64,000 nt of DNA from Candidatus Woesearchaeota archaeon (GTDB lineage: Archaea > Nanobdellota > Nanobdellia > Woesearchaeales > UBA11576): contig JBDRET010000024.1 of NCBI GenBank assembly GCA_043819495.1, positions 7,177 to 71,176 of the forward strand, read 5' to 3'. This document shows, in pieces, positions 201-51,200 of this stretch; position 1 is the stretch's first letter; every line of letters begins with the position of its first letter. The translations under genes and the position numbers were made by a program. The notes below the pieces were generated by a model, which searched no databases, had not been told where the DNA came from, and worked only from the letters and a program-made list of their open reading frames with translations.

Positions 201-791
201 TCAGCGTATCTTATCATTGAGCTTAAGACTCAGGACCAAGTCATCAAGTTTCTTCAGGTCATACTTGACTGAATCGAACTTCTTCCTCAGTTCGCCACCT
301 GCAAAATCGAAAAGCATGAGTTCGTCATAAAGATCAGACACAAGATCCTTCAGCTTGACAGAAGTATCGTACTCTCCTTTGATCGCTGAGTTTATCGCTT
401 TTCGTACCAGCTCTCCAGTAAGATCGATCAGGCCCATCAGATAGAATTCAGGGTCCAGCTTAAGCTGTGTATTGCTAGGTATCTTGTTGTTCTTTGTGAG
501 TTCATAGAAACATAATGCTTCAACATATTCCTGGACCGCTACCTTGTATGAGCCAGAACTCAGGAGTTTAGGGCTCTTTGCATATGATGTGAGCTTCTTG
601 AAGAGTGCAGCCATATCTTTTGTAGCTGCCCCTGCTGACTTCAGGTCATTCCTATGTACAGCATATATGACTGTCTTTGAGAGTTTGATTACCTCACGCG
701 AGGTCTTTATGACAGCATCCCTCTGCTTGTCACAAGCATCAATATCATTCTTTATCCGCTCTAAATCTTTTTTGTCAAGCATCGATAACAC
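201..791 (-). CDS. Translin-family protein (archaeal translin-like nucleic-acid binding protein)
   Basis: 196 aa, all-helical composition, with 'GLIDLTGELVRKA' resembling the translin 'DLTGEL' signature. Homology is recalled from memory and not searched. Confidence 0.4.
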   Translation of the reverse strand: MLSMLDKKDLERIKNDIDACDKQRDAVIKTSREVIKLSKTVIYAVHRNDLKSAGAATKDMAALFKKLTSYAKSPKLLSSGSYKVAVQEYVEALCFYELTKNNKIPSNTQLKLDPEFYLMGLIDLTGELVRKAINSAIKGEYDTSVKLKDLVSDLYDELMLFDFAGGELRKKFDSVKYDLKKLDDLVLSLKLNDKIR

Positions 792-832: not shown

Positions 833-1465
833 TTGGCCCGTAATTCGGCAATGGCATCAAATCTGTCCAACGAAAGATTTATATACTCTATTTCACAATG
901 CAGGACTTATATGGACAGTACATTTAGAGGTGTAATCGAATTTTTTGTACGGTTAGGAATCTACGATGTAGTCCTGCCTTTCTTGCTCGTTTTCACTGTA
1001 GTTTTCGCAATAATGGAGAAGACACGCGTGCTTGGAGTTGAAAAGACTGGCAGCGGTGAATTCACGCGAAAGAACCTCAATTCGATGGTCGCGTTTGTAA
1101 TAGCGTTCTTAGTTGTAGCGTCTTCCAGGCTTGTGGCAATAATAAACGAGACAATGGCAAACATGGTTCTCCTGCTCATGTTGAGCGTGTGCTTCCTGAT
1201 ACTTATAGGGAGCTTCATGAAGGAGACAAAAGATGGAGTGTTTCTTGAAGGTAGTTGGGCAAAGTTATTTACAATTATCATGTTCGTCGGATTATTACTT
1301 ATATTCGCAAATGCGCTTGGTTGGCTTGAGCCTTCCTGGCAATATCTGTTACATAATTATGACAGCACTGTCATGGCATCACTCCTGCTTATCGCAGGAA
1401 TGGTCGGTTTCGTGTATTGGATAGTAAAAGATCCAAAAAAAGATGGGTCAGGGTCATCATCATAA
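833..1465 (+). CDS. Polytopic small membrane protein, paralog 1 of 3 in tandem; the true start may be the internal Met near 911
   Basis: 4-5 predicted TM helices. Shares the N-terminal motif 'DVVLPFLLVFTVVFAIMEKTRVLG' with the next two ORFs. Confidence 0.5.
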   Translation: MARNSAMASNLSNERFIYSISQCRTYMDSTFRGVIEFFVRLGIYDVVLPFLLVFTVVFAIMEKTRVLGVEKTGSGEFTRKNLNSMVAFVIAFLVVASSRLVAIINETMANMVLLLMLSVCFLILIGSFMKETKDGVFLEGSWAKLFTIIMFVGLLLIFANALGWLEPSWQYLLHNYDSTVMASLLLIAGMVGFVYWIVKDPKKDGSGSSS

Positions 1466-1506
1466 AAGTGATGGACTGATTATCATATTCAAAGGAGGTA
1501 AGAAAA

Positions 1507-2133
1507 ATGGCATATCCTTATGGTGGTTACGGAGGCAGTGGCGGTGGTTACTTCGCGAACCTTCTTGGCGTCCTGCAGACCTGGGGTCTTACAGACGTTA
1601 TCCTGCCGTTCATACTTGTGTTTACGATAGTCTTTGCGGTAATGCAGAAAGTAAAACCGCTCGGACCTGCAGATGGCAGGACCAAGCCGTTCAATGTAGT
1701 GATATCATTAGTCATGTCACTTTCAGTAGTCATACCTCACGTCATGGGTTATTATCCTCCTGGAGCTGATGTAGTCAATATCATAAATGCAGCATTGCCG
1801 CAGGTATCAGTAGTGCTTGTCGCAGTCCTCATGGTCTTGTTGATCGTTGGACTCTTCGGCGGCAAGGCAGAATGGGGCGGCCCACTTTCAGGCTGGCTGG
1901 CATTCTTCTCATTCATGCTTGTGATATTCATCTTCGGCAGGGCAGCAGGATGGTTCTATTATCTCCCAAGCTGGTTGTACTGGCTGGACAACCCTGACAC
2001 GCAAGCTATGCTCCTCGTGGTCGCAGTATTCGCGATAATCATCTGGTACATAACCAAGGATGACAGCAAGGAGCAGAAAGGTATGAAGGATTTCGGTGAT
2101 GCCTGGGGCAAGCTCTTTAAGGGCACCAAATAA
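1507..2133 (+). CDS. Polytopic small membrane protein, paralog 2 (Gly/Tyr-rich N-terminal tail)
   Basis: Contains 'DVILPFILVFTIVFAVMQKVKPLG', the same motif as paralogs 1 and 3, and is hydrophobic throughout. Confidence 0.55.
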   Translation: MAYPYGGYGGSGGGYFANLLGVLQTWGLTDVILPFILVFTIVFAVMQKVKPLGPADGRTKPFNVVISLVMSLSVVIPHVMGYYPPGADVVNIINAALPQVSVVLVAVLMVLLIVGLFGGKAEWGGPLSGWLAFFSFMLVIFIFGRAAGWFYYLPSWLYWLDNPDTQAMLLVVAVFAIIIWYITKDDSKEQKGMKDFGDAWGKLFKGTK

Positions 2134-2188
2134 TTTTTTAAATCATATTTCATATCATTTTTTTAATCTACAGTAAAAAGAGGTCAAC

Positions 2189-2761
2189 ATGGCGACATTT
2201 TTAGATATAGGACTTGCAGAACATTTCGCGATAATATTCCCTATACTTCTAGTCTTTGTGATAGTATTTGCACTACTTGAGAAATCTAAGATATTGGGAG
2301 ACAATAAAGGGTTACATTCGCTGATTGCATTATCTATAGCCATAATGATGATCTTTGTCCCGGGTCTTGTCCAGGTCGTGGTCATAATGGCACCTTGGTT
2401 TGTTATACTGTTTTTGTTGGTTACATTCTTCCTGCTGCTGCTCATGTCTTTTGGCACTAAGTGGGATGCGATATCAGGAGTGGCAAATGTCTGGCAGACA
2501 CCACATTGGTTTCTTCTTATCATATCCTTAATAGTATTTATCGGTGCATTAGCACAGGTATATGGTGGGGCTATGCTTCCATTCTCAGACGATGGCAGCG
2601 TGCAGGTGTCTTCAGCAGCTGATACTAACCTCACGACAGATACAGGGAATTTCAACCAGAATGTCGGCAGGGTGATATTCCATCCGAAGACTATTGGCCT
2701 GTTCTTCATGCTTATGGTAGGCGCACTCACGATAAAGCTTCTCGCATCAACTCCGAAGTGA
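2189..2761 (+). CDS. Polytopic small membrane protein, paralog 3
   Basis: Contains 'FPILLVFVIVFALLEKSKILG', the same motif, and is hydrophobic throughout. Confidence 0.55.
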   Translation: MATFLDIGLAEHFAIIFPILLVFVIVFALLEKSKILGDNKGLHSLIALSIAIMMIFVPGLVQVVVIMAPWFVILFLLVTFFLLLLMSFGTKWDAISGVANVWQTPHWFLLIISLIVFIGALAQVYGGAMLPFSDDGSVQVSSAADTNLTTDTGNFNQNVGRVIFHPKTIGLFFMLMVGALTIKLLASTPK

Positions 2762-2798
2762 ACTGTATAGTCCTGGTAGGTCTTTCTTGAAACTTTTA

Positions 2799-2818
2799 AG
2801 AAATAGCTAAACAAATAC
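2799..2818 (+). repeat. Solo copy of the 20-mer 'agaaatagctaaacaaatac' (identical to 26025-26044)
   Basis: Exact 20/20 match in an intergenic spacer between convergent genes. Confidence 0.5.
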
Positions 2819-2851
2819 AAAATATCAATAAAATATTATTTCTATTGATAA

Positions 2852-3598
2852 TTAATGCTTAGAAGGCGCATGTGCTTTCATGCTGTCAGTTATCCTTGAG
2901 AGCTCTGAGATATTCTCTATGAAGCCTGGCAGCACCTTCTGGAACACTTTCTCCAGTGCCTTGACCTCAGTGCCCACATCACCAATGTGTTTGTCATATT
3001 CCCCTACACGCTCAAGAATGCCTTGGTGCATCTTATCAAAGTCATCCTTCATCGCCTTCATCAAGGTCTCAAGCTGTATCAATCTTGTCTCGGTCTTATC
3101 CTTCCATTCTATTATTCGGTTGATGTTCTCCATCAAGTCATTCCATTTCTCTTCGATGATCGCTTCTGCAATCTCTTCGATACGCTCATTGCTACCGCTT
3201 GAGTCCATCATCGCAAGCTCTTCACCTGCGACAGGAGCGCCTGGATAGCCTCCTTGAGCTGACATGTCTGGAGGAAGATTCGGATCTGCCATATTACCAC
3301 CTGCGCCGTTAAACGGCATCTTTGTTTGCATCCTCATATCTGCCTGGTTCATGGCATCCAAGACCTGATTTGTATTGTACCCTTGTCTCTGTAGTGCTGT
3401 CACAATCTGATTATTTGAGAGGCCCTGTTGCCTCATGCTCAGAACAGCTTCTGTAGGGGTATCTTCTGGCATATTAATCCTCGAACCAAGCAATATGTCT
3501 ATCAAGGGTAATGCTGTTTTTAAAGGTTTCGTTAGGCCCGGGTGCATCAAGCAGGTTTTTTTCGTATCTGTTTCGTATCTGTTTCGACGAAAAAACAT
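2852..3598 (-). CDS. Coiled-coil protein with an N-terminal Q/N-rich region; the likely true start is the internal Met at ~3547 or ~3472
   Basis: The C-terminal half has heptad-like charged repeats. The ORF's 5' end overlaps a hairpin/direct-repeat region (3555-3596), so an internal start is favoured. Confidence 0.45.
   Translation of the reverse strand: MFFRRNRYETDTKKTCLMHPGLTKPLKTALPLIDILLGSRINMPEDTPTEAVLSMRQQGLSNNQIVTALQRQGYNTNQVLDAMNQADMRMQTKMPFNGAGGNMADPNLPPDMSAQGGYPGAPVAGEELAMMDSSGSNERIEEIAEAIIEEKWNDLMENINRIIEWKDKTETRLIQLETLMKAMKDDFDKMHQGILERVGEYDKHIGDVGTEVKALEKVFQKVLPGFIENISELSRITDSMKAHAPSKH
3555..3596 (+). promoter_or_regulatory. Hairpin (gtttttttcg / cgacgaaaaaac) enclosing the direct repeat 2x 'tcgtatctgtt', in the divergent region between the coiled-coil gene and the DUF87 ATPase gene
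   Basis: Read directly from the sequence. Confidence 0.4.
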
Positions 3599-3638
3599 TT
3601 AAATACTCAGAGCCATAATACATTAAGCAGAGGCGAAG

Positions 3639-4991
3639 ATGTCGGACGAGAAAAAAGAGCAGCAAAAAGAGGAAGACTTACCCATAGTAATAGGCAGAAG
3701 CCCTGCTGATGTGAAAAAGTACGGCAAGAAGGGCGCGATACTTCTTGGAAGACAATATGTGGAGAAGCTTGACAAGCTGTTCATGGATAAGACGGTGTAT
3801 ATGGATGTTGCAGGAGCGCATGTCATCCTCATATGCGGAAAGAGAGGTGGCGGAAAGTCTTATACCATGGGAGTGATAGCAGAAGGGCTTTCCATGCTTG
3901 AACCTGAGGTCCAACAGAACCTCAGCATAATACTTCTTGATACGATGGGAATCTATTGGACGATGGGGCATGCAAACAAGAAAGAGAAAGATCTCCTCGC
4001 ACCATATGGGATAACCCCACACCCTGTAGAGCTGAAGATATTCACTCCTGAAAAATTCTATTATGAATACAAGAAGAAAGGTATCAGGACTGATGAGCCG
4101 TTCTCGCTTGAGCCGCACATGATAACAGGAGATGACTGGTGTGTAGCGTTCAAGCAGGACAAGTATTCTCCAAATGGGCTGTACATACAGAAGATCATGG
4201 AAGAGGTCTCAGAGAAGAATGAAAAATACCAGATGAAAGATATCTTTGCTTATATCTCGGCAGATAAAGAGACTGATAACCAGGTAATCTCGGCAATAAA
4301 AAGCATGTTCACTACAGCTGAAGGATGGGGAGTGTTCTCAGAGAAAGGGACTCCCATAGAAGATCTTGCCAAAGGCGGGCAGATAACTGTACTTGATGTG
4401 AGCTGTTATGCTACCATGCCAGGAGGATGGGATGTCAAAGCGCTGGTGGTCGGGATCGTGTCAAAACACCTATTTCTCACAAGGATGGCATTCCGAAAAG
4501 AGGAAGAGCTGTCATCAATAAAATATCTTGAGGATTACTTCACAGACAAGACATCTGATGATGCGCAGAAACAGGATATGCCATTGGTTTGGCTGGTCAT
4601 CGACGAAGCACATGAGTTCCTGCCTAAAGATGAGAATGACGTGAATGCCGCGACAGAACCTCTCAAGATAATAATGAGAGAAGGAAGACAACCAGGAATA
4701 TCACTTATTGTCGCTACACAGCAACCTGGAAAGATACATACTGATGTCATGACGCAATGTGATACGGTGCTCTCGCATAGGATAACTGCGCGGCTTGATG
4801 TCCAGGCATTAGGCCTTCTTGCACAGAGTTATATGGAGCATGGGATCGAGCGCGCGATGAATGACCTTCCCACAATGAAAGGTACTGCAGTCGTCTTTGA
4901 TGATCTCAATGAGAAGATAATGATGATAAGGGTACGTCCGCGGTTCACATGGCACGGTGGCGCAAGCCCGTCCGCAATAAAAGACGACTAG
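3639..4991 (+). CDS. DUF87 / HerA-FtsK-like P-loop ATPase
   Basis: Walker A 'ICGKRGGGKSYT', Walker B 'WLVIDEAHEFLP', and 'ATQQPGKIHTDVMTQCDTVLSHRITARLD', which is typical of the HerA/VirB4-like 'ATQRP...' arginine-finger region. Confidence 0.6.
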   Translation: MSDEKKEQQKEEDLPIVIGRSPADVKKYGKKGAILLGRQYVEKLDKLFMDKTVYMDVAGAHVILICGKRGGGKSYTMGVIAEGLSMLEPEVQQNLSIILLDTMGIYWTMGHANKKEKDLLAPYGITPHPVELKIFTPEKFYYEYKKKGIRTDEPFSLEPHMITGDDWCVAFKQDKYSPNGLYIQKIMEEVSEKNEKYQMKDIFAYISADKETDNQVISAIKSMFTTAEGWGVFSEKGTPIEDLAKGGQITVLDVSCYATMPGGWDVKALVVGIVSKHLFLTRMAFRKEEELSSIKYLEDYFTDKTSDDAQKQDMPLVWLVIDEAHEFLPKDENDVNAATEPLKIIMREGRQPGISLIVATQQPGKIHTDVMTQCDTVLSHRITARLDVQALGLLAQSYMEHGIERAMNDLPTMKGTAVVFDDLNEKIMMIRVRPRFTWHGGASPSAIKDD

Positions 4992-5072
4992 TCAATCACT
5001 GGCCTTGTCGGTCAGTCTATCATCAGGACCAGAATCTATTGAACCAGAAATCTACTCTACTGAAACAGAACT

Positions 5073-5633
5073 CTATTGATTAAGCTTAAGGTCGCGTAAT
5101 ACCAGCTGGATCTGCTCTTTGATATATTTCTCTTCCTGAAGACGGATGTTGAGGTCCTTGAACTGTGCATCCACCTGTTCTGCAATCATCTTGGTCACGG
5201 TATCGCGGGTCACGAAGTTTATCGGTTCCCAAATATTGATGTATTTCTGGAGCACATCAACATCCTGCCTTTTTGCGCATTCCTTGAGCTCGCGCACTAT
5301 GATCTTCATCTTCTCTATGATGTCGTCAAGCTGTTTCTTAAAATCATCTAGCTGTGAATGCATGGTCTGGATCTCAGTCATGATCTTCTTGTTGCTGTTG
5401 AGCATGTTCTGGTCAGTCACTTGGGTCTTCTTCCGAAGGTTAGTATACCGTTCTTCTATGACCATCATCCTTCGGCCTAGATTATTGACCTCACCAGCTA
5501 TATCAGAAACAGATTTAGACAGGTCAGCACCAGGCTTAGGCTTGGGTGCAAACAGGCCTCCAGAAGGTTTAGGCGGGGCTGCCGCTTGCAAAGACGCTCC
5601 AACTCCTGGGGGTACAGACATCTGATCAGCCAT
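5073..5633 (-). CDS. Coiled-coil protein with a Pro/Gly-rich N-terminus (trimmed to start MADQMSVPPG; the ORF track extends to 5723)
   Basis: Long heptad-rich helical sequence (e.g. 'LRKKTQVTDQNMLNSNKKIMTEIQTMHSQLDDFKKQLDDIIEKMK'). No catalytic motifs. Confidence 0.45.
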   Translation of the reverse strand: MADQMSVPPGVGASLQAAAPPKPSGGLFAPKPKPGADLSKSVSDIAGEVNNLGRRMMVIEERYTNLRKKTQVTDQNMLNSNKKIMTEIQTMHSQLDDFKKQLDDIIEKMKIIVRELKECAKRQDVDVLQKYINIWEPINFVTRDTVTKMIAEQVDAQFKDLNIRLQEEKYIKEQIQLVLRDLKLNQ

Positions 5634-5920
5634 TTTTAAACATTCACCTTCATTTCCTGATATGTATTCAGTTGTTTGCTCGCCAGAGCAACAAGCTGTA
5701 TGCTGGCGATATAAATGTATCAAAACCTTTATTAAATCAGACCGGGTCTGATACTTGCTATCTATATAGTCTTAATATGTAGTATTAAGCCAATACTATT
5801 ATAATAAAGTTTGTGTGAGTATGTTTTAGTGGTGTAGCCGCAGTGTAGCTTTCAGTGCTGTAGCAATCAAGGCATCCTGCTAAGGCTGCCTGTCCCAATA
5901 TAAGAAAATGGTGAATCTGT

Positions 5921-8251
5921 ATGATGTTCCATGCCAACAAACCCCTATATTCCTATGAGGTAGTGCGTGAGGGAGAGGATAATGTCCTTCGTGTAAATTA
6001 CGAAGGTGCTCCTGTGGTCCCTTCTATGGAGAACAATCCTATTGTCATGTCAAGGGTCTGTGATAACCTTATCGAATCAAAGAATGCGACCAAGATAATA
6101 TTCACCCAGAAACGGGAATATGAGTATGATTATAATCAGACACTCCTGATCAAGGAGATTGCAGAGGTGTACGACAAGCTGTCCAAGCAGAAGGACATGT
6201 TCACCCTGACTGCACTTCAGGTGGATGAATCATCCAAGAGATTCGCCAATAGATGGTATACTGAGGTACAGACACTCATCTTCCAGACATTGAGGGCTGA
6301 CCCGATAGGGATGTATGTTGACCTCAAGAGAAAAGCGAGAGAAGAGAAGGTCAACTTCATCAAGATTGTCGACGAGAAGATAAAGCCCGGCATAAGCAAT
6401 TACATCAAGCTGCTGACATATGTCATAAATGTCATGGAGAAGACACGTCTGATTACCGTCGCAAAACCTTTCCTTTCCGGTTACCATATAGGTGACAGGG
6501 AGATCTACAGTAATTTCTTCCATCCCATGATAAAGCCTGACTTCATGTGGACAAAGCTCATGGCGAATTATCCTCCTGATGGGGAAGAGATGGACAGTTA
6601 CGTAATAGGTGATGATACAGAGATAGTGATATTCAGGTTGCAGGATTCTGTACAGTACATATATCACATGACCCCTCCAGAATTCAAGCTATCAGAGGAT
6701 AAATATGAACTTCTTGACATGGCACGTAACATCCTTGCCGAGCACAAGCCGAGCAAGCAGGAATTCACTGATCCTGAAAGGATGAGAGAGGTCTTCACCA
6801 ATGTAGGCAAGGATCTCATGGCTGAGCTTGTCGCATACAAGAATATGGAGATGTCACAGAGTGAGATAGAGAAGCTTGCCAATATTCTCGTCAGGTATAC
6901 CGTAGGTTTCGGTCTGGTCGAGGTCCTGCTTCAGGATGATAAGATCCAGGACATATCAGTGAACAGCCCGCAAGGCAGGCTCCCTATATTTGTCGTCCAT
7001 GCGGATGCTGCTGATTGTGTCACTAATGTCATCCCGACGAAGACAGAGGCAGAGAGCTGGGCAACAAAACTAAGGATGATATCAGGCAGACCTCTTGATG
7101 AGGCAAATGTAATCCTTGATACTGAACTTGAGATGCCGGGAGCATCCATAAGGGTGTCTACGATAACCCAGCCGCTCAACCCATCAGGACTCGCATTCTC
7201 GTTCAGAAGGCATAGGGACAAGCCATGGACGCTGCCGCTTTTCATGAAATACAAGATGATCAGCCCTCTTGCAGCAGGACTTCTCAGTTTTCTTGTGGAT
7301 GGTACAAGGAGCATGATGGTGTGCGGTACCAGGTCAAGCGGAAAGTCTGCTTTCTTATCTTCCCTTCTCATAGAGATCATGCGTAGATACAGGATAATAA
7401 CTGTAGAGGATACTCTGGAGCTTCCTACAACATCAATGCGTCGACTGGGATTCAACGTGCAGCCGATGAAGGTAGCGAGCGCACTTGCAAAAGGGAGCAG
7501 TGAGATGAGTGCAGAAGACGGCATAAGGAGCACGTTAAGGTTGGGTGACAGCGCGTTGATAGTCGGTGAAGTAAGGAGCAGTGAAGCCAAAGCACTATAC
7601 GAAGCTATGCGAGTAGGTGCTGCAGCTAACGTCGTTGCAGGAACTATCCATGCTGACAGCCCTTTTGGTCTTTTTGATAGGGTAGTCAATGACATAGGCA
7701 TCCCGAAGACCAGCTTTAAGGCGACTGATATAGTGATAATCGCGACCCCTATAAAATCCGCAGATGGCCTTCACAGGGTCAGGAGGGTGACACAGATAAC
7801 TGAGATCCGAAAGAGCTGGCAGGAAGATCCGATGCTCGAACACGGATTTGTCGACCTGATGAAATATGATGCAAAGACAGACAGTCTTGAGCCGACCGAT
7901 GAATTGCTCGACGGTGATGCAGAGGTCCTCAAGGCAATCGCCGCAAACATACCTGACTTCGCAGGCAATTGGGATGCTGTATGGGATAATATAGTCCTGC
8001 GAGGGGAACTCAAAGAGATATTGTTGAATAAAGCGATAGAACTTGATGATATGGACATGCTAGAAGCACCATTTGTCATAAAATCCAATGATAAGTTCCA
8101 TCTGCTTGTAGAAGAGGTCAAGAAAGACACAGGGACACAGGATAACAAAGAGCTGAAGCGACGATGGGAGAACTGGTTTGACCGTGAACTGAAGAAAAGA
8201 AAACTTAATAAAGGCAAAACCGACTTCAATCCGTATGGATTGAGCTATTGA
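5921..8251 (+). CDS. Type II/IV secretion-system ATPase of the FlaI/GspE/TadA family, unusually long (776 aa) with N- and C-terminal extensions
   Basis: Walker A 'CGTRSSGKSAF' (a variant of GxTGSGKT), Asp-box/Walker B 'IITVEDTLEL', and a 'VGEVRSSEA' His-box-like region. The domain order matches the FlaI N-domain followed by the ATPase domain. Confidence 0.75.
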   Translation: MMFHANKPLYSYEVVREGEDNVLRVNYEGAPVVPSMENNPIVMSRVCDNLIESKNATKIIFTQKREYEYDYNQTLLIKEIAEVYDKLSKQKDMFTLTALQVDESSKRFANRWYTEVQTLIFQTLRADPIGMYVDLKRKAREEKVNFIKIVDEKIKPGISNYIKLLTYVINVMEKTRLITVAKPFLSGYHIGDREIYSNFFHPMIKPDFMWTKLMANYPPDGEEMDSYVIGDDTEIVIFRLQDSVQYIYHMTPPEFKLSEDKYELLDMARNILAEHKPSKQEFTDPERMREVFTNVGKDLMAELVAYKNMEMSQSEIEKLANILVRYTVGFGLVEVLLQDDKIQDISVNSPQGRLPIFVVHADAADCVTNVIPTKTEAESWATKLRMISGRPLDEANVILDTELEMPGASIRVSTITQPLNPSGLAFSFRRHRDKPWTLPLFMKYKMISPLAAGLLSFLVDGTRSMMVCGTRSSGKSAFLSSLLIEIMRRYRIITVEDTLELPTTSMRRLGFNVQPMKVASALAKGSSEMSAEDGIRSTLRLGDSALIVGEVRSSEAKALYEAMRVGAAANVVAGTIHADSPFGLFDRVVNDIGIPKTSFKATDIVIIATPIKSADGLHRVRRVTQITEIRKSWQEDPMLEHGFVDLMKYDAKTDSLEPTDELLDGDAEVLKAIAANIPDFAGNWDAVWDNIVLRGELKEILLNKAIELDDMDMLEAPFVIKSNDKFHLLVEEVKKDTGTQDNKELKRRWENWFDRELKKRKLNKGKTDFNPYGLSY

Positions 8252-8263
8252 TCTTCCGATCCA

Positions 8264-8671
8264 TTGTTGATAAAAAGAGGCATCAATATGGCAGTACCGA
8301 CAGCACAGGCACCACAGAATTATTATTCCAAATCACCTCCAGGTGCAAGACCTGGACCTTCTTACGCCAAACAGATGCCTGTAAGTCCTGGCGCTGCACG
8401 TAGCCCTTCTCAGAACACTGGAACTGCAACTCCTCAGCAGAGTGTCAAGAAAGAGTTTGATATAAATCTCTATTTCAAGGCAGTAGGATTGTTCTTCAAT
8501 GATTTCTTCGGAAAGAAAATGCCTTACTTCTTCCAGAATATGGGGCCTGTGATGCAGAATGCGCCTAACTGGTGGAACAAGCTCCCTCAGGATGAACAGA
8601 TATCATATGGTGTTATGGTATTTGGAGGATTCCTTTTTGTTGCAGGGATAGTGCTTTTTGTAGTGCTGTGA
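8264..8671 (+). CDS. Small Pro/Gln-rich protein with a C-terminal TM anchor (start probably the Met at ~8288)
   Basis: Low-complexity N-terminus, then 'VMVFGGFLFVAGIVLFVVL' as the terminal helix. Confidence 0.4.
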   Translation: MLIKRGINMAVPTAQAPQNYYSKSPPGARPGPSYAKQMPVSPGAARSPSQNTGTATPQQSVKKEFDINLYFKAVGLFFNDFFGKKMPYFFQNMGPVMQNAPNWWNKLPQDEQISYGVMVFGGFLFVAGIVLFVVL

Positions 8672-8674
8672 TGA

Positions 8675-10309
8675 TCACTGCCGTACCATTCCCTTTACAT
8701 TATATACTTGAATAGGATTAGATTTTCCTTTCACTCTTATCGGTTCAAGCTCTTCACACTTGACGAGCTTCTTGACTTCTGCATGCGTGGTCGCGGTAAT
8801 GAGGATCTCATCTGCTTTTGCAGCTCCGCAAAGACGTGCGGCGACATTGACGCTGTTTCCTATGACTGTGTAATCCATGCGCTGCCTTGCGCCGACATTA
8901 CCTACGATCATCTCACCAGTATTGATGCCTATTCCGATATTTATGTCGATGCCATACTTCTTCTTGAACTTCTTGGATAATATCTTCTGTGCTGCCTGCA
9001 TCTCGACGGCAGTCTTCACTGCCTTGAGCGCATGCGCTTCGGTGCGGACTGGAGCGCCGAATATCGCCATTATCTCGTCACCTACAAACTTGTCTAGTGT
9101 CCCGTTGTTCTGGTGTATTATCTGCAACATCGTCTCGAAGTGCTCGTTGAGTATCTCTATTGTGTGTTCTGGTGCGAGCTGCTCTGACCATGCTGTGAAG
9201 TCACGCAGGTCTGAGAACAGTACGCTCATCTCACGTTTCTCTGTCCTGAGATAATTCTCTTCAGGGTTTGCAAGTATCTGCTTCATTACTTCAGGACTGA
9301 CGTAGCTCTGGAAGGCAGTCTTTATCTCGGTCTTTGCAAGATCCTCAAATACTGCTGAGTCTGCCTGCTTTGCGATAGCATTGAGAAGATTCTTGTCTAT
9401 CTTCGTGAACCCGTCAGATGAGCTTGAGTTTATCACTCCGAAGACACCCATAGTATCATCATTGAGCATGAATGGTGTACAGATAGCTGAGTCTATATCC
9501 TTGTTGACATTCTTGAACTCTGTAAGCTCTCCCTTGTTCAGTGTCGTACGTGCAGTATCATATAATGCATTTGAATTGTTATGGACAAATGTGGATGACT
9601 TGAGCTTGCCTGCGGTCTTGAGCTCCGTGGTGTTCATCTTCCTATTATTTATCATGAAGAATGCGAGCTTTGCATCTATGACATCAGTTATCTCCTGCAA
9701 TATCGCTTCCATCATCGTGTCAAAGTCTTTTATCGTGTCTCTGATCCGGTCTATGGCGTATATCGTCGAGAGCTCTTTGTCCTTCTCACTCAGTTCCCTG
9801 CGGCTCTTTGCGTGCTCGACAGCTACAGCAGTAAATTTACATATCATCCTGAAAAGTATGAGGTCCTTCTTCTTGAACAGTCTGCGGCTCTTGTTCATTA
9901 TCATGAAGACGCCGATCGGTTCTGATCCGTACATCAATGGCAATGCCATCACATTCTGTATCCTGCATCGTCTCATGCGCTTGTGCATACGGGTGTCATT
10001 CACTATTATCTGCTTCCCTGTCTTGACCAGGTTGTCACATATATCCCTGACCAATGCCTGATCCTCAAGCTGTTCGGAAGTGTTGGTCGCACCATACTCG
10101 AATGGGTTCATGTTGTCTTTGTTGTATAAGATTATGAATCCCAATTCTACTCCAATTGTCTTGACTGTCAGAAGAAGTATCTCCTTAAGGAGCTGGTAGA
10201 ATTCCTTTGTATTGGTCTCTATGGTCACCAATTCGCTCAATATGTATGAACGGGTATTCTGGGACCTGATCTTAGCTGCCAGTCTTTTGATCTTATCAGA
10301 GGATTTCAT
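8675..10309 (-). CDS. Class III adenylate/guanylate cyclase with two N-terminal GAF-like domains
   Basis: Cyclase homology domain motifs are present: 'VLFSDLRDFT', 'KFVGDEIMAIFGAP', 'INTGEMIVGNVG' and 'DYTVIGNSVNVAARL'. The N-terminal ~350 aa looks like tandem GAF sensor domains. Confidence 0.7.
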   Translation of the reverse strand: MKSSDKIKRLAAKIRSQNTRSYILSELVTIETNTKEFYQLLKEILLLTVKTIGVELGFIILYNKDNMNPFEYGATNTSEQLEDQALVRDICDNLVKTGKQIIVNDTRMHKRMRRCRIQNVMALPLMYGSEPIGVFMIMNKSRRLFKKKDLILFRMICKFTAVAVEHAKSRRELSEKDKELSTIYAIDRIRDTIKDFDTMMEAILQEITDVIDAKLAFFMINNRKMNTTELKTAGKLKSSTFVHNNSNALYDTARTTLNKGELTEFKNVNKDIDSAICTPFMLNDDTMGVFGVINSSSSDGFTKIDKNLLNAIAKQADSAVFEDLAKTEIKTAFQSYVSPEVMKQILANPEENYLRTEKREMSVLFSDLRDFTAWSEQLAPEHTIEILNEHFETMLQIIHQNNGTLDKFVGDEIMAIFGAPVRTEAHALKAVKTAVEMQAAQKILSKKFKKKYGIDINIGIGINTGEMIVGNVGARQRMDYTVIGNSVNVAARLCGAAKADEILITATTHAEVKKLVKCEELEPIRVKGKSNPIQVYNVKGMVRQ

Positions 10310-13709: not shown

Positions 13710-14741
13710 ATGAAACTCGCAGAACAACTACGGCAAGAATTCCTCGACCATGGGAGAGGATTCGAGAACATAATAGGACAGGACCCTGTCAAACAGCAGG
13801 TAAAGTCAGCACTCATCGCAGGAAGGCATATACTGATAGTAGGTCCTCCAGGGATAGGGAAGACAACTCTTGCAAAGAGCATCGCAGGACTGCTGCCTGA
13901 GACTGAGGTCAAGAACTGCCCTTACAACTGCCTGCCTGAAAGGCCTGTGTGCCCTGAATGCAAGACGGGTAGGACAGATGGAACAAAGATAGTCGCAGGT
14001 CTTGATTTTTTTGTAAGGGTACAGGGAAGCCCCGACCTTACTGCTGAAGATCTTATAGGTGATATCGATCCTGCAAAAGCGATGGAACACGGACCGCTCA
14101 GTATTGAAGCATTCACTCCAGGAAAGATATTCAAGGCAAACAATGGCGTGCTGTTCTTTGATGAGCTCAACAGGGCTCCGGAGAAACTCCAGAATGCACT
14201 GCTTCAGGCATTGCAGGAGAGGACAGTTACGATCGGCAGCTATGACGTTGACCTTGAGGCAAATTTCATATTCATAGCGACCATGAATCCTGATGATTCA
14301 AGTACAGAACCCCTCTCTGATGTCCTTCTTGACCGTTTTGATGTTGCATACATGGTATATCCTGAGAGCATCGAGAATGAGGTACGCATAGTAGAAGAGA
14401 ACTCCCAGCATTTTCTTGAGTTCCCTGAAAATGTACGCAATCTCACAGTGCTTTTTGTCAGGCTCCTGCGTGAGAGCGACAAGCTTGAGAAGCTTCCTAG
14501 TGTCAGGGCGTCAATAGGATTGTATGAACGGGCGCAGACAAATGCCCTGGTGAAAGGCAAACAAAAAGTAGAATGGCAAGATGTACAGGATGTTCTAGTG
14601 TCCGTGCTCAGCCATAGGATAAAACTCAAGCCATCTTCACAATATCTGCAGACCCCGCAGGAACTCATAAAGGAACAGCTCTCAAAGTTTGTGGAACAGC
14701 ACGGGATCCAGAGAGAAGCCGAAGAGGGTGATGTTCCCTAG
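13710..14741 (+). CDS. MoxR/magnesium-chelatase-like AAA+ ATPase with a zinc-ribbon insertion
   Basis: Walker A 'GPPGIGKTT', Walker B 'VLFFDELNRA', sensor 'ATMNPDD', and an inserted 'CPYNCLPERPVCPECKTG' zinc ribbon. Confidence 0.7.
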   Translation: MKLAEQLRQEFLDHGRGFENIIGQDPVKQQVKSALIAGRHILIVGPPGIGKTTLAKSIAGLLPETEVKNCPYNCLPERPVCPECKTGRTDGTKIVAGLDFFVRVQGSPDLTAEDLIGDIDPAKAMEHGPLSIEAFTPGKIFKANNGVLFFDELNRAPEKLQNALLQALQERTVTIGSYDVDLEANFIFIATMNPDDSSTEPLSDVLLDRFDVAYMVYPESIENEVRIVEENSQHFLEFPENVRNLTVLFVRLLRESDKLEKLPSVRASIGLYERAQTNALVKGKQKVEWQDVQDVLVSVLSHRIKLKPSSQYLQTPQELIKEQLSKFVEQHGIQREAEEGDVP

Positions 14742-15942
14742 TAGTGCTGAGGCAAAAGATAAGGATACTGTAAAACTCGATATCTCAAGCCTTACACCTC
14801 TACAGGAGATGGATGGCAAGCTTAAGCTTGACAATGTAGATGACAAGCTCATGCACTCTGTTCTTGAGAATGACCAGGAAGTCATAGATGAAGGTATGGT
14901 GATAGAAGAAGCCATAAACAGGGGAATAGGATCATTTAGCCCTGACATGATGTTCGAGAAGCTCGTCAAGAATTATACAATGGCAAAGAGCATCTTTGGA
15001 GAGGCTCTGATCAGAGCAATCTCAGGATACGATCCTGAATATCTGGACAAAAATATAGGCATACCTGAATTCCAAAGAGAGCTCAAGAAAAGGATCGAGG
15101 AAAAACTGGACAGATTCAAGAAAGATGGGATAATAGACAAACAGGGCATAATCACTGACAAAGGGATAGAACTCGCATCACTCATAATGTGCATCCAAGA
15201 GCTTGACAATATCGTACCCAAAGGGATATCTGGCGAGAGAGTGCACAAGAGACATTCTATATATGGCGGAAAGAGTGATGTGCGCAACTATAGGAAAGGT
15301 GACCGGTATCGTGATATCGCTGTCAAGATGTCTGCCAAGACTGCGATACGCAGAGGACATCACGAGATAGGTATGGGGGATCTCAAGACATACGAACGGC
15401 AGAGTAAGGGCGAAGTGTATCTCATCTATGCACTTGATGCTAGCGGAAGCATGAAAGGAGATAAGATAGGGGTGTGCAAGAAAGCAGGTGTTGCACTTGC
15501 GTATCGTGCTATCCAGGAGAAAGATAGGGTCGGGCTCATAGTTTTTGGCACAGATGTGAAAGAAGCGATACCACCGACAACAGATTTTTCATTATTGCTC
15601 AATTCCATAACACGAGTAAAAGCATCAGCAGAGACTGACATGGCAGCCACCATCAGAAGGGCTGTCGAACTTTTCCCCAATACTGATGTGACCAAGCATC
15701 TTCTTGTACTCAGTGATGCGCTGCCGACAAAAGGTGATGATCCAGAGAAAGAGACACTTGAAGCTGCAGCAGTCGCAAGGGCTGCAGGAGTGACAATATC
15801 ATTGATAGGAATAGACTTGGATGCCAAGGGCAAGAAGCTTGCAGAGAAACTTGTGGAACTCGGGAACGGGAAGCTCTATGTGGTCAAGGACCTGAAAGAT
15901 ATAGACAAGATAGTGCTTGAGGATTATTATAGTGTGATGTGA
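14731..15942 (+). CDS. von Willebrand factor A (vWA) domain protein partnered with the preceding AAA+ ATPase
   Basis: MIDAS-like 'YALDASGSMKGDK', then 'LIVFGTD' and 'LVLSDALPTKGDD'. The start overlaps the ATPase stop. This is the classic MoxR-vWA (ChlI/ChlD-like) pair. Confidence 0.65.
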   Translation: MFPSSAEAKDKDTVKLDISSLTPLQEMDGKLKLDNVDDKLMHSVLENDQEVIDEGMVIEEAINRGIGSFSPDMMFEKLVKNYTMAKSIFGEALIRAISGYDPEYLDKNIGIPEFQRELKKRIEEKLDRFKKDGIIDKQGIITDKGIELASLIMCIQELDNIVPKGISGERVHKRHSIYGGKSDVRNYRKGDRYRDIAVKMSAKTAIRRGHHEIGMGDLKTYERQSKGEVYLIYALDASGSMKGDKIGVCKKAGVALAYRAIQEKDRVGLIVFGTDVKEAIPPTTDFSLLLNSITRVKASAETDMAATIRRAVELFPNTDVTKHLLVLSDALPTKGDDPEKETLEAAAVARAAGVTISLIGIDLDAKGKKLAEKLVELGNGKLYVVKDLKDIDKIVLEDYYSVM

Positions 15943-38612: not shown

Positions 38613-39695
38613 TTAAAAACTAAGCAAGCTTTTAAAAGTTTGGTTTTTCGGGGTGTACTTCGGCTTGTTCAGTGACTGCATCTCTTTTACAATATCAAGA
38701 TGCTCTATGCCTATCTTACCAACATAAAGGTCATTGATAGAACCTCCTTCTGCAAGATACTTCTTCACCTTAAGATACCCATCTATGTAGACATAGTCTT
38801 TCTGGCAGCCTCCAGGTCTTGATGTATCTGCGATGCCGCGTTTGACCCTTGTGGTTATCCTGAATGCTGTCGATGGCTGGAAGAACTGAAGAAGATACTT
38901 ATATATCTCTGAGAAGCTCTTAGTGAGTGCCATCTGGACAGCGACTGCTCTTGCGGCATAATTCTTGATATTCTCATTATTCAACAGTCCGAATCGCTCT
39001 TCATTGACTACTGCAAGTCCCTCTTCTGTAGCGAGATAATCAGGGAATCCGTGGAAGAACATCATGAATGGCTGTTCCCTGCCGTTCTCAGCGCGAAGGA
39101 CATGAGTACCTATCTCGTGTATCACCAGCCTTTTGATGAAATTGTCTGAGAACATGAAATTATCTTTGATGAATATCTTTTTTTTTGATACCAACACTGC
39201 AGCGCTTGCGCTCATGTTCTTTGTATCGACATCATAACCGAAACCGTAATGGTTGACTTCTGCCTGTATCCTATGCTTAGCAGTGATTGGATCTATGGTC
39301 TTTGCTTCTTTCTCGCATTCAAGTGTGAGAAGGTTTGCGGAATGATCAAGGGCTTCATTTGAGGGAGTCCCATACACTTTACGAGAGAACACTGTGAATT
39401 TCTTTGATCCTCTATTGTTCAACATCTCGCACTTGTCTATGAAAAGGTTACGTTTCCTGCTCAAGAGCTCTCCAAAAGCAGAATCATGATCATCTATAGA
39501 ATTCAGCCTGGACTGTACTGCATCATAATCAAAATCAAGCTCAGGGTATATGAAATACGGGTCATAATCAGGATCCGCAAGCACTTTAATCTTTTCAGAT
39601 TCGTTGTTTATCGGATTTATCTCGAAAAAGCTGACTGGATTGATCACTTGCTGTAGACTTGCATCTATGTTCTTGAGTTTGAAAAAATCTGCCAT
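38613..39695 (-). CDS. DUF1704-family putative zinc metallopeptidase (HExxH plus QEGLA-type motif), paralog 1
   Basis: 'HEIGTH' and 'TEEGLAVV'. Confidence 0.5.
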   Translation of the reverse strand: MADFFKLKNIDASLQQVINPVSFFEINPINNESEKIKVLADPDYDPYFIYPELDFDYDAVQSRLNSIDDHDSAFGELLSRKRNLFIDKCEMLNNRGSKKFTVFSRKVYGTPSNEALDHSANLLTLECEKEAKTIDPITAKHRIQAEVNHYGFGYDVDTKNMSASAAVLVSKKKIFIKDNFMFSDNFIKRLVIHEIGTHVLRAENGREQPFMMFFHGFPDYLATEEGLAVVNEERFGLLNNENIKNYAARAVAVQMALTKSFSEIYKYLLQFFQPSTAFRITTRVKRGIADTSRPGGCQKDYVYIDGYLKVKKYLAEGGSINDLYVGKIGIEHLDIVKEMQSLNKPKYTPKNQTFKSLLSF

Positions 39696-48254: not shown

Positions 48255-51200
48255 ATGGTACTTGAGAAACTTGGAACTTCACTCAGAGACACACTCCACA
48301 AGATAAGTAAAGCAGTCTTTGTAGATGAAAAACTGGTCAATGAGCTGGTCAAGGATATCCAGCGGGCCCTTCTCCAGTCAGATGTCAATGTCAAGATGGT
48401 ATTTGAGCTCTCCAAGAAGATAAAGGAGAGGCTGATGAATGATGATGCACCTCCAGGCCTGACAAAGAAAGAATTCCTCATAAAGATAGTGTATGAAGAG
48501 CTTGTGAACTTCCTTGGGGCTGAAGCATCAACTATAGAGATAACGAAGAAACCAACTAAGATCATGATGGTAGGACTTTTTGGTCATGGAAAATGTGTAC
48601 ATAAGGACAGCAACATACTTCTTTTTGACGGTACAACTGTCGGGGTGCAGCAACTATACGACTCCTACAGGTGCAATGGGGAGGTCGACATAGAGGATGG
48701 ATGTATCATACCTCTTGATGCAGAGCTTTCTGTCCCTTCGATGAACACAAAAAGCCTGAAGATCGAGAAAAAGAGAGTGACTCATCTCTGGAAACTGAAA
48801 TCAAAAGACCTGATGGCTGTATCGCTCGATATGGGAAATGACTTCAACGTCAAGACCACCTGTGAGCACCCGTTCTTTGTACTGAAAGATGGCTTGGTGG
48901 AGCAAAGAAGGGCAGATGAATTAAGGAGAGGGGATTATGTAGCAATACCTGCGAAGGTCACTACAGAATCTGGCAGCATCAACTTTGAGGACTCTCTGAA
49001 GAGACTCAACCTCAACGTGAAGATATCTGATGATAAGACCTTAAGAACACTCAAGAAAAAGATAATAGCAGAACATGGAACACTGATGCGCGCAGCTTAC
49101 TCACTCCCCCATAAACGTAATTATGCTGTATTTACGAGTTCCTTAAAGAAAGGAGAGATCCCAATCCAGCTATGTGGCCTCGGAACATCTGATGCTGTGC
49201 ACTTAAAGCTGCAGAACTCCCAAGATTATATCGATTTTCCCACAAGATCAACACCTGAAATGGCAGAATTCTTGGGCTACATCATAGGCGATGGTCATCT
49301 TTCCCATAATAGTGTCAACATATCAAATAAGGACCCTGAAATAATCGAGAGACTGAAAACATTGTCGAAAGACCTCTTCGGCAGGGAGCTGAAGCTTACC
49401 CCCTGCAAAAGGTCCAAAGGATTGTATGATCTCAGGATAAACTCTAAGACCCTTGTCACGCTCATACATGGGCTGTTCGGCATACCGATAGGAAAGAAAG
49501 GGACTGGACTGGAAGTCCCTCAACTCGTACAACTGTCTTCGCAAGATGTAATCTCCAGATTCCTGAGGGCTTATTTCGATTGCGATGGGTATTTCTGCCG
49601 TACCCAAAGGCAGATTGAAGCAGTATCTGAAAGCAGAGTGCTGCTAAGACAGATACAGCATATGCTGCTAAGGTTCGGGATTGTCGCGAAGATGATCAAT
49701 AAGAGAACCGATGGGAAGGACTATTCCAGGCTAATGGTGCAGGCGAGGGATACTGTCATATTCGGTGAGAGGATAGGCGCATCAATCGCAAGGAAAAGGG
49801 AAGCGCTTGAGAACCATGTTATCATGACCATCAAGCAAGGTGATGGAAAGAAAGACATGATACCGGTCGGCAGCCTCCTGAGAGAATTAAGGGAAATGTC
49901 CGGTTTCTCTTTAAGCCAGATACAGGATGCTGTAAGTTCATATGGCCTGTACGAGAAGAAAGGCATGATATCCAGGACACAATTACGCAATGTCGTCTGT
50001 TTCTATGAGCGTGGCGAGAGCGGCAATTTCCGTAAGTTGATAGGCCTGGTGGAGAACTCGCAAAAAGACAAGCTCAGCGAACAGCTACGGATAAGCCAAC
50101 CATTGGTAAACGCGCTTGTGGGAGAGCTGAGGAACAGAAACATGATCGCAGAAGTCACGAACTCACCTACCAGACTTGTCCTTACAGAAAAAGGGAGTAA
50201 GTATTTTGATGGCATGAAACGATCCTCGGACAGACTGTTCGGGATCCTGAGAACCCTTGCGTATGCTGATGTCTGCTGGGCCAAAGTCAAAGACGTCTCT
50301 AAAGTCAAGAATGACCATCCATATGTGTATGATCTCACTGTCGAGGACAGCCATAACTTCATCGCTGATGGCATTGTGGTGCATAATACGACGACTGCCG
50401 CTAAGTTAGCTAAATACTACCAGAAACGTGGCAATAAATTGGCATTGATATCCACAGATACCTGGAGGCCGGCAGCATTTGAGCAATTGAGACAGTTAGG
50501 TGCGCAGATAAACGTCCCGGTATTCGGAAATCCTAAAGCAAAGAGTCCTGTAGCGATATACAAAGAATTCGAAGACAAGCTTGGCGAGTTTGATCTTGTC
50601 ATCATAGATACTGCAGGAAGGGATGCATTGTCTGATGAGCTCATCAGGGAACTGAATGATATCAATAATGCTGTGCAGGCAGATGAGAAACTTCTTGTCA
50701 TAGGCGGTGATGTCGGGCAGGCTGCGGAAAGGCAGGCACAGACATTCCACGATACCTGTAATGTGACTGGTGTGATAATAACAAAGCTTGAAGGTACAGC
50801 AAAAGGTGGCGGTGCACTGATAGCATGCTCCGTGACCGGCGCAAAAGTAAAGTTCATAGGAGTAGGAGAGAAGATTGATGACCTTGAAGTGTACTCTCCT
50901 GAAAGGTTCGTCGGAAAGATGCTTGGCATGGGCGATCTTGAAGGCCTCCTTGAGAAAGCACGTGAAGCGATAACAGAAGAAGATGCACAGGACCTCGGTA
51001 AGAAACTCCTGAAAGGTGATTTTAACCTCCTTGACCTTTATGAGCAGATGCAGGCGATGAAGAAGATGGGGCCTTTGGGCAAGGTGATGGACATGATACC
51101 TGGCTTTGGTCAGATCAAGCTGCCAAAGGATGCATTGAAAGTCCAAGAAGAGAAGATCAAGAAATGGAAATTCATACTCGACAGCTGCACCAAAGAGGAG

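Follow-up and report, generated by a model that had tools for sequence, protein, structure and literature searches.

What kind of machine is encoded where two ATPases, three small membrane proteins and two coiled-coil proteins stand side by side on alternating strands of an archaeal genome? The question is raised by a gene cluster at positions 911-8671 of a 64-kb stretch (contig JBDRET010000024.1; hereafter the window, meaning the whole of the DNA analysed) from a metagenome-assembled genome (MAG) of Candidatus Woesearchaeota, a lineage of the DPANN archaea. The searches of the organism's own genome cover this window. An initial annotation, made from the sequence alone, had proposed that the cluster encodes uncharacterised ATPase-driven membrane machinery. 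On balance, the locus probably encodes the Woesearchaeota form of a machine for type IV filament (archaeal type IV pilus-like) assembly, the core of which is of a known kind, accompanied by undescribed accessory proteins (M1, M2, M3, CC1, CC2 and SP) and by a dedicated HerA-like paralog. What stands of the earlier proposal is the linkage of the genes and the novelty of several families, while a machine distinct from type IV filaments is not supported.

Woesearchaeota and other DPANN archaea are abundant, uncultured and host-dependent. To our knowledge, their attachment to and exchange with hosts are largely unknown. The cluster, present in hundreds of species, is a candidate machinery for host contact, and it joins five protein families without known relatives to the HerA-like paralog, thereby offering a testable parts list for the surface machine of the lineage. 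Cryo-transmission electron microscopy has revealed pili-like appendages on ultrasmall groundwater episymbionts that reach into host cells (PMC7906910), and in the analogous case of the bacterial Candidate Phyla Radiation, Saccharibacteria episymbiosis requires type IV pili (PMC9894109). The questions raised by the cluster concern the roles of M1-M3 and CC1/CC2, and why a second translocase-type ATPase recurs between CC1 and CC2.

The genes of the locus and its immediate flanks are given below, with start codons refined on ortholog alignments.

201-791, minus strand: Translin, flanking M1
911-1465, plus strand: M1, first of three small membrane paralogs (184 aa, ~5 hydrophobic helices)
1507-2133, plus strand: M2, second paralog (208 aa)
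2189-2761, plus strand: M3, third and most divergent paralog (190 aa)
2852-3472, minus strand: CC1, cytoplasmic helical/coiled-coil protein (206 aa)
3639-4991, plus strand: HerA-like (DUF87) P-loop ATPase of the FtsK/HerA superfamily, paralog clade A (450 aa)
5073-5633, minus strand: CC2, cytoplasmic protein with a coiled-coil-like helical domain (186 aa)
5921-8251, plus strand: FlaI/GspE/CpaF-family hexameric secretion ATPase (776 aa)
8288-8671, plus strand: SP, small tail-anchored protein (127 aa)
8675-10309, minus strand: GAF-adenylate cyclase, downstream of SP

The mechanically called open reading frame (ORF) of M1 begins upstream of the refined start, at TTG 833. The alternation of strands noted initially, with M1-M3 on plus, CC1 on minus, HerA on plus, CC2 on minus and the ATPase on plus, implies at least three or four transcription units across the locus, and CC2 is divergent from the FlaI-like ATPase, with which it shares a promoter region. 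The GC content of the locus (0.43-0.47) is the same as that of the rest of the window, in which scans for tRNAs and Rfam families found neither.

The motor of the machine is the best-defined component. The 776-aa protein carries the Walker A, Walker B, Asp and His boxes of GspE/FlaI/PilB-family hexameric ATPases, with conserved motifs GTRSSGKS, LIVGEVR and GTIH, and it matches Pfam T2SSE above cutoff (5.6e-17), as expected from its first description as a GspE/FlaI-family enzyme. Its family profile, compared with the PDB, retrieves afGspE (2oap, 3.7e-31), CpaF (7.5e-28) and FlaI (3e-16) from residue 220 on. A structure prediction had been called for in the initial annotation, and the AlphaFold2 (AF2) model (pLDDT 79) matches afGspE 2oap and FlaI 4ii7 with Foldseek target-normalised TM-scores (TMt) of 0.72-0.75. 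Two regions are family-specific and conserved in all orthologs: a small beta-sheet with a helical bundle (residues ~1-200) and a C-terminal extension of three helices (residues ~684-763). The NCBIfam models of individual systems remain under their cutoffs, namely archaellum FlaI (123.6 vs 550 bits), TadA (127 vs 373) and VirB11 (62 vs 250). The protein is 100% identical to an NCBI entry named 'type II/IV secretion system ATPase subunit [Candidatus Woesearchaeota archaeon]', and at least 591 species-level genomes encode orthologs of 57-81% identity. When genomes of equal distance are compared, no gene nearby is better conserved than the two ATPases: the FlaI-like ATPase retains 57-61% identity where Translin retains 38-49%, and 71-81% where the CCA-adding enzyme retains 52-69%. 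M1 and M2 show 41-58% where the ATPase shows 57-61%, similar to or above Translin, and M3 and CC2 diverge faster. One ortholog of 1299 aa (P0020) holds an intein.

The gene order around this ATPase was surveyed in two ways. For the ATPase-anchored survey (86 loci), one genome per GTDB species was scanned, which yielded at least 591 stretches with a relative of the ATPase; 80 loci at 57-81% identity were taken, and hidden Markov models (HMMs) of the families were run on six-frame ORFs. The M-anchored survey used M2 as anchor and comprised 80 loci from Joint Genome Institute metagenome contigs, independent of the first sample. The typical order is Translin (minus), M1, M2 and M3 (plus), CC1 and CC2 (minus) and the ATPase (plus), followed by a gene for a ~730-aa polytopic protein, here called TadC-like, which often overlaps the ATPase stop codon. 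The linkage frequencies, expressed as loci with the gene over loci with enough flank, are listed below.

TadC-like gene: 55/69 (~80%) ATPase-anchored, directly after the ATPase; 13/22 M-anchored
CC2: 55/71 ATPase-anchored, 25/35 M-anchored
CC1: 47/67 ATPase-anchored, 31/42 M-anchored
M1-M3: 37/59 ATPase-anchored; order M1-M2-M3 in 67/69 M-anchored
FlaI-like ATPase: 18/28 M-anchored
Translin: 20/53 ATPase-anchored, 21/44 M-anchored
HerA: 8/56 ATPase-anchored, 4/31 M-anchored
SP: 5/84 ATPase-anchored

M1 is always accompanied by CC1 (40/40 ATPase-anchored loci), and ~60-77% of related loci unite M1-M3, CC1, CC2 and the FlaI-like ATPase in an unchanged order. In all, the cluster is found again in over 100 related loci. 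Since the same order recurs in two independent samples, the arrangement is far beyond chance. Three further M-anchored loci hold the same module between entirely different flanking genes, and the module is kept at 57-60% ATPase and 40-50% M2 identity despite different flanks, so that the neighbourhood is genuinely conserved and more than local synteny; the suggestion that these are unlinked housekeeping genes can be set aside. Gene order also suggests that M1-M3 and HerA may be physical members of the machine.

The absence of a FlaJ/TadC platform, of pilins and of FlaH from the locus was taken initially as the mark of a distinct machine. The absence itself is confirmed: no FlaJ/TadC-like gene was found in the 64-kb window by tblastn or with a 67-sequence HMM, the search for class III signals gave no pilin candidate in the window, the Pfam and NCBIfam matches of the locus include no archaellum component, FlaH among them, and the 36 window ORFs scanned with Pfam gave no Peptidase_A24 (PibD/FlaK) match. 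The TadC-like gene is likewise neither adjacent nor within the flanks (up to 10 kb) of the other loci of the window's sublineage, defined by at least 71% ATPase identity (L001, L003-L006, L089, L091), in which it is gone from the locus, SP follows the ATPase and HerA lies between CC1 and CC2. In orthologous loci, however, the TadC-like gene follows the ATPase as tabulated above, and pilin-like genes are found in L011, L017, L037 and L043. As both are present in orthologous loci, their absence in the window is a sublineage-specific rearrangement, and the inference of a distinct machine drawn from it fails. In other lineages (L011, L043, L045, L046, L049, L051, L059, L063), too, the TadC-like gene has been relocated or does not adjoin the ATPase, which makes relocation the simplest reading; the platform gene presumably lies elsewhere in this genome.

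The TadC-like protein (~730 aa) has 8 hydrophobic segments and two soluble helical regions, the second of which gives sub-threshold Pfam T2SSF matches in 8/24 members (best E 0.0018). By its position, size and topology, it would be the expected FlaJ/TadC-type platform, and it is treated here as a putative member of that family. Pilin-like genes were recognised by motif only (a short basic leader, K/R-A/G-Q and ~20 hydrophobic residues), and Pfam gave a single weak Class_IIIsignal match among them (E 0.048). They are located as follows.

L011:2781-6114 and 8253-8732, minus strand: six-gene set of pilin-like genes
L043:8206-8730, minus strand: pilin-like gene abutting CC1
L017:2486-3301, plus strand: pilin-like gene within a tight ATPase-pilin-TadC operon
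L037:8734-9981, plus strand: pilin-like N-terminus joined to a Laminin_G_3 (ConA-type) lectin domain, between CC2 and the ATPase

In L011, one of these genes forms a single minus-strand operon with CC2 and CC1, with five further pilin-like genes nearby. The presence of pilin-like genes in the module ties the ATPase, the TadC-like protein and the CC pair to type IV filament function.

The accessory proteins are of a different nature. M1, M2 and M3 had been described as three tandem paralogs with 4-5 transmembrane (TM) segments, and profile comparison (hhalign) agrees that they are true paralogs, with E values of 3e-37 (M1-M2), 3e-20 (M1-M3) and 3e-17 (M2-M3) and 4-5 hydrophobic segments each. 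Each is a separate orthologous group that keeps its position in relatives. The AF2 model of M2 (pLDDT 76, pTM 0.49) contains 5 TM helices flanked by an amphipathic helix at either terminus, and shows no fold similarity to solved membrane components. No family match for M1-M3 was found in Pfam, NCBIfam or PADLOC. A profile search of 1.84 billion representatives returned 2376 members of the M family, nearly all of 180-220 aa, and the best 150 of these include no informative fusions. Three identities considered for M1-M3 were ruled out: diverged FlaJ/TadC fragments (hhalign probabilities <1%), pilins (5 TM helices, class III motif absent) and prepilin peptidase (no GxGD or Asp pair conserved across the paralogs, no A24 match). 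SP has a disordered, Pro-rich N-terminus and a single TM segment at the C-terminus, in addition to an amphipathic region. It fills the slot of the FlaJ/TadC-like gene directly after the ATPase, is limited to the window's sublineage, being also present at L089 and L091, and has no match among described families or folds. Its origin as a remnant of TadC was ruled out, as hhalign finds no similarity to the TadC-like profile.

CC1 and CC2 are without TM segments and, in agreement with the initial description of two coiled-coil proteins, return recurrent weak coiled-coil matches. In a 33-sequence alignment, CC1 shows a conserved UBA-like N-terminal domain of ~35 aa and a likewise conserved C-terminal helical/coiled-coil domain of ~110 aa, joined by a P/Q-rich linker that varies greatly in length; its Pfam and PDB matches are weak UBA-like and generic coiled-coil ones. 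CC2 has a disordered N-terminus followed by a helical coiled-coil-like domain. Against Pfam and PDB both give composition-driven weak coiled-coil matches only, and, like M1-M3, they match no described family or fold. Weak FlaC_arch matches occur in 10/33 CC1 and 6/35 CC2 members. A comparison of the two with hhalign (P=0.0066 over 109 columns) makes it possible that they are distant paralogs. CC2 is the accessory gene most tightly linked to the FlaI-like ATPase, often staying beside it where M1-M3 and CC1 are missing. CC2 and CC1 are also co-operonic with pilin-like genes in L011 and L043.

The second ATPase, of 450 aa, matches Pfam DUF87 (1.6e-10; 41.9 bits vs cutoff 23.2), in keeping with its first assignment, and its Walker A and B motifs, GKRGGGKS and VIDEAHEF, are invariant in 24 homologs. 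By sequence it is a member of the FtsK/HerA superfamily to which no narrower family can be assigned: only the core from Walker B to the arginine finger aligns to the HerA, EccC, TraB, CedB and CedD models, at 15-50 bits vs NCBIfam cutoffs of 600-970. Some examples are CedB (15.4 vs 700), CedD (31.3 vs 600), TraB (20.8 vs 800) and helicase_HerA (40.8 vs 970, the C-terminal ATPase core alone aligning). With 55-84% identity over more than 120 clusters, the family equals the FlaI-like ATPase in conservation. Members with known gene context fall into two clades in a neighbour-joining tree. Clade A contains every copy beside CC1/CC2 (the window, L001, L003, L006, L046, L071, L088 and the P0320 locus), and clade B the copies beside a SurA_N/rotamase gene (P0352, P0298/L086, P0313/L087). 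Both clades stand in tandem in L087 (10001-12654), and the L088 contig has one copy of each. HerA is in the cluster in ~14% of the ATPase-anchored loci (8/56) and in the M-anchored minority tabulated above, across at least six divergent lineages; the complete set of M1-M3, CC1, HerA, CC2, ATPase and TadC is found in L088 and L093, and in L006 a segment inversion leaves the CC1-HerA divergent pair intact. Clade A HerA is therefore recurrently, not constantly, tied to the CC pair, and the pairing of a VirB4-like with a VirB11-like ATPase, noted initially, is not constant. The HerA-like protein brings no VirB4, CedB or CedD model near threshold. As a separate observation, the gene adjoining clade B HerA (L086:8001-9323; L087:10001-12654; P0352) encodes a PrsA-like foldase of the SurA_N/rotamase type, and the tandem in L087 hints at a hetero-oligomer or at a link to secreted-protein folding.

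Taken as a filament assembly machine, the locus would work as follows. The FlaI/GspE-type ATPase would be the cytoplasmic hexameric motor, co-transcribed in most relatives with the ~730-aa FlaJ/TadC-like polytopic platform, and motor and platform would together assemble pilins with class III signal peptides, encoded in the locus or away from it. The CC2-CC1 operon, divergent from the motor operon, would provide cytoplasmic coiled-coil scaffold or regulatory subunits, with a function like that of archaellum FlaX or FlaC/D/E and of the coiled-coil proteins found in other archaeal pilus loci. In the membrane, M1-M3 may assemble into a hetero-oligomeric subcomplex by which this scaffold is anchored or aligned, and clade-A HerA, between CC1 and CC2, may add a translocation or remodelling activity coupled to it. 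In the window's sublineage, the platform gene would have moved out of the locus, with the small tail-anchored SP placed after the ATPase.

Several observations weigh against this interpretation. The 64-kb window yielded no platform or pilin gene, its 36 Pfam-scanned ORFs yielded no prepilin peptidase gene, and the TadC-like protein of the relatives has no above-threshold T2SSF match, no NCBIfam or PDB-sequence match and no detectable internal repeat. The link of M1-M3 to the motor is one of gene order, and synteny within a clade is not proof of function, as Translin, presumably unrelated, is adjacent in 38-48% of loci. The P0320 locus consists of Translin, M1-M3, CC1, HerA and CC2, and its 8-kb surroundings contain no T2SSE gene; in L114, L122 and L166, which have M1-M3, CC1 and CC2, a FlaI-like ATPase is missing from the surrounding ~8-10 kb; and 6/28 full-flank loci hold the ATPase and TadC alone. 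These loci would be expected if two machines lay side by side, a pilus motor (ATPase plus TadC-like protein) and an independent module of M1-M3, CC1/CC2 and clade-A HerA, for instance a translocase of the FtsK/HerA type for DNA or protein, or a complex for division or membrane remodelling, with the adjacency due to co-regulation or inherited synteny. The parting of CC2 and the ATPase by four unrelated genes in L088 points the same way. On the other hand, CC2 is the tightest partner of the ATPase, shares a divergent promoter region with it and often stays in the absence of M1-M3 and CC1; CC2-CC1 join operons with pilin-like genes; and HerA is missing from the cluster in ~86% of loci. Two machines are rather unlikely, but this explanation keeps substantial weight because clade A HerA is recurrently tied to the CC pair, tracking it in at least six divergent lineages. 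A related and more doubtful proposal is that M1-M3, CC1/CC2 and clade-A HerA make up an autonomous, undescribed membrane translocation machine coupled to the pilus motor, in which a HerA motor docked via the coiled-coil scaffold on an M1-M3 channel would move DNA or protein at host contact, and with which the FlaI-like ATPase of the sublineage would work without a FlaJ/TadC platform.

A single new machine for conjugation or DNA uptake, platform-less, driven by both ATPases (one VirB4/HerA-like, the other VirB11/GspE-like) and using M1-M3 as its channel, would account for the fact that, in the window and its sublineage, M1-M3 and CC1/CC2 are contiguous with the two ATPases, for the lack of platform and pilin genes in the window and in the sublineage flanks of up to 10 kb, and for the sharing of one neighbourhood by all components in L093 and L088. 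The HerA-like protein also has weak NCBIfam matches to CedD, TraB and EccC, but these are superfamily-level (15-31 bits vs cutoffs of 600-800), and Pfam and NCBIfam give no VirB4, VirB6, VirD4 or CedA-like match. Since, moreover, M2 resembles no solved membrane component, HerA is facultative in the cluster, and the usual partner of orthologous ATPases is a TadC-like gene, joined at times by pilin-like genes, we consider such a machine improbable. It is still harder to attribute the cluster to synteny, that is, to unrelated conserved genes lying adjacent in compact, related Woesearchaeota genomes with no shared function beyond the ATPase. Close relatives keep genes for Translin, the CCA-adding enzyme, a nucleotidyltransferase and MoxR-VWA in synteny as well, and the strand alternation divides the locus into several transcription units; nevertheless, the module persists between different flanks at the identities given above, its linkage frequencies exceed that of Translin, and the inversion in L006 spared the CC1-HerA pair. 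Least credible of all is an anti-phage defence island or integrated mobile element with a HerA-type ATPase. PADLOC returns partial matches to HerA (1.6e-20) and mad8 (4e-18), and the adjacent GAF-cyclase matches PycC models, but the HerA matches are confined to the ATPase core, known partner genes, an integrase and a compositional anomaly are all missing, and both ATPases, found across hundreds of species, rank with the best-conserved genes nearby. The defence reading was rejected on this conservation and on the lack of partner genes. Assembly of type IV filaments remains the interpretation we prefer.

Some features of the non-coding and flanking DNA may be related to control of the locus. Beyond TATA-like 9-mers, no regulatory motif is common to the three divergent spacers. 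The CC1-HerA spacer contains an 11-nt direct tandem repeat, CGTATCTGTTT, in two copies plus a partial third (window 3563-3586), and the block ATAATAAAGTTTGTGTnAGTATG, ~100 nt 5' of the FlaI-like ATPase, is kept across the sublineage and is probably a promoter. Directly 5' of the ATPase and on the same strand, 38/97 loci carry a conserved ORF of 47-58 aa (L002:9852-9998, L084:13052-13228 and L088:15769-15912, all on the plus strand, are examples) with the consensus MKKPISATIDxxLIxWIxxELxDxxKYRNKSHLIEIALxxLKK and a ribbon-helix-helix-like pattern. Pfam RHH_1 matches only one of three tested, and that weakly (E 0.023). The ORF probably encodes a dedicated regulator; it is lacking from the window's sublineage, whose 287-bp spacer (window 5634-5920) has stops in all frames. 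The tandem-GAF plus class III adenylate/guanylate cyclase gene is convergent with SP, separated from it by 3 bp, and also occurs near the locus in L003, L004 and L006, though not in more distant relatives; control of the FlaI-like motor by a cyclic nucleotide from this neighbouring cyclase is possible.

Additional genes were observed in the neighbourhood and elsewhere in the window. In one relative, a protein with DUF835 and winged-helix domains lies between Translin and M1 (L002:5853-6539, plus strand). Downstream of the locus, genes for a MoxR-type AAA+ ATPase and for a VWA/DUF58 protein are paired at window 13710-15942 (plus strand); MoxR is syntenic in L001, L003 and L006, and in L001 a VWA gene also follows it. 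MoxR-VWA pairs have been linked to predicted secretion or membrane-remodelling complexes (Makarova et al. 2015, PMC5898192). Between 22950 and 32955 lies a dense group of deoxynucleotide and thymidylate genes, encoding thymidylate kinase, a 588-aa ThyX, a Mur-ligase-like (FolC-type) protein, serine hydroxymethyltransferase, a kinase-dCMP deaminase fusion, and dNMP kinase-like and double dCTP deaminase-like proteins. A metallopeptidase homolog of the MATCAP family (microtubule-associated tyrosine carboxypeptidase-like, E 3.7e-56) is encoded at 38613-39695 (minus strand), and at 48255-51437 (plus strand) SRP54 is split by an intein with a LAGLIDADG endonuclease (1060 aa). Many contigs with the locus (L004, L010, L011 and others) are titled 'uncultured Methanosarcinales archaeon', and the 115-kb contig of L017 'Armatimonadota bacterium'; these are likely mislabelled or mis-binned MAGs.

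How does the locus compare with known systems? Archaeal type IV filament (TFF) systems, built on a FlaI/GspE ATPase and a FlaJ/TadC platform, have been catalogued (Makarova, Koonin and Albers 2016, PMC4858521) and are also covered by a 2026 TFF census (bioRxiv 10.64898/2026.04.22.720090). Literature searches brought up no account of the module, which is missing from published surveys of archaeal type IV pili and of archaeal 'dark matter', and the locus lacks the defining components of an archaellum, a Tad pilus, a Ced/Ted or VirB-type type IV secretion system (T4SS), a HerA-NurA pair or an anti-phage HerA system, as the initial annotation had held for several of these. With HerA-NurA and anti-phage HerA it shares the DUF87 central domain and the core from Walker B to the arginine finger. 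Unlike HerA of the HerA-NurA pair, the 450-aa protein is without most of the length of the HerA models (41-50 bits vs 800-970), and no NurA, Sir2 or DUF4297 partner is found in the neighbourhood. Unlike anti-phage HerA, the gene is conserved and syntenic, falls into two lineage-wide paralog clades and has partial PADLOC matches with no partner. As in T4SS and Ced/Ted systems (PMC9905601), ATPases of the FtsK/HerA and VirB11/GspE superfamilies are co-located with small multi-pass membrane proteins; in contrast to them, no VirB4 (CagE_TrbE_VirB), VirB6, VirD4 or CedA-like match is found, the association of HerA with the cluster is facultative and the CedB, CedD and TraB models score 15-31 bits vs 600-800.

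The filament systems are compared by their motors. CpaF of the Tad pilus is the second-best solved relative of the ATPase, and the logic of a motor with a polytopic platform is the same, but the TadA model scores under its cutoff, and Flp pilin, TadZ, secretin and the split TadB/TadC pair are absent. The archaellum also has a FlaI ATPase, and its FlaX and FlaC/D/E offer a coiled-coil analogy to CC1/CC2; here the difference lies in the FlaI equivalog model, far under cutoff, and in the genes for FlaH/KaiC-like proteins, FlaF/G and archaellin, all of them missing from the window locus and from those related loci that were annotated. Within the 2016 catalogue, loci of subclade 4F are accompanied by coiled-coil proteins such as arCOG07564, and a 4F pilus-type ATPase occurs in nanoarchaea without identifiable pilins (PMC4858521), a likeness that serves as a literature lead for the ATPase of this locus. 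From archaeal type IV pili the locus differs in the length of its ATPase (~250 aa longer, with its own N-terminal domain and C-terminal helical extension), in the platform-like protein of its relatives, too diverged for detection with Pfam, NCBIfam or PDB sequences, in the undescribed families of M1-M3, CC1, CC2 and SP, in the recurrent insertion of a HerA-like ATPase, and, in the window lineage, in a locus without platform and pilin genes. It resembles them in the afGspE/FlaI fold and motifs of the ATPase and, among relatives, in the polytopic platform-like gene that comes after it and in the pilin-like genes with class III signals that sometimes accompany the pair.

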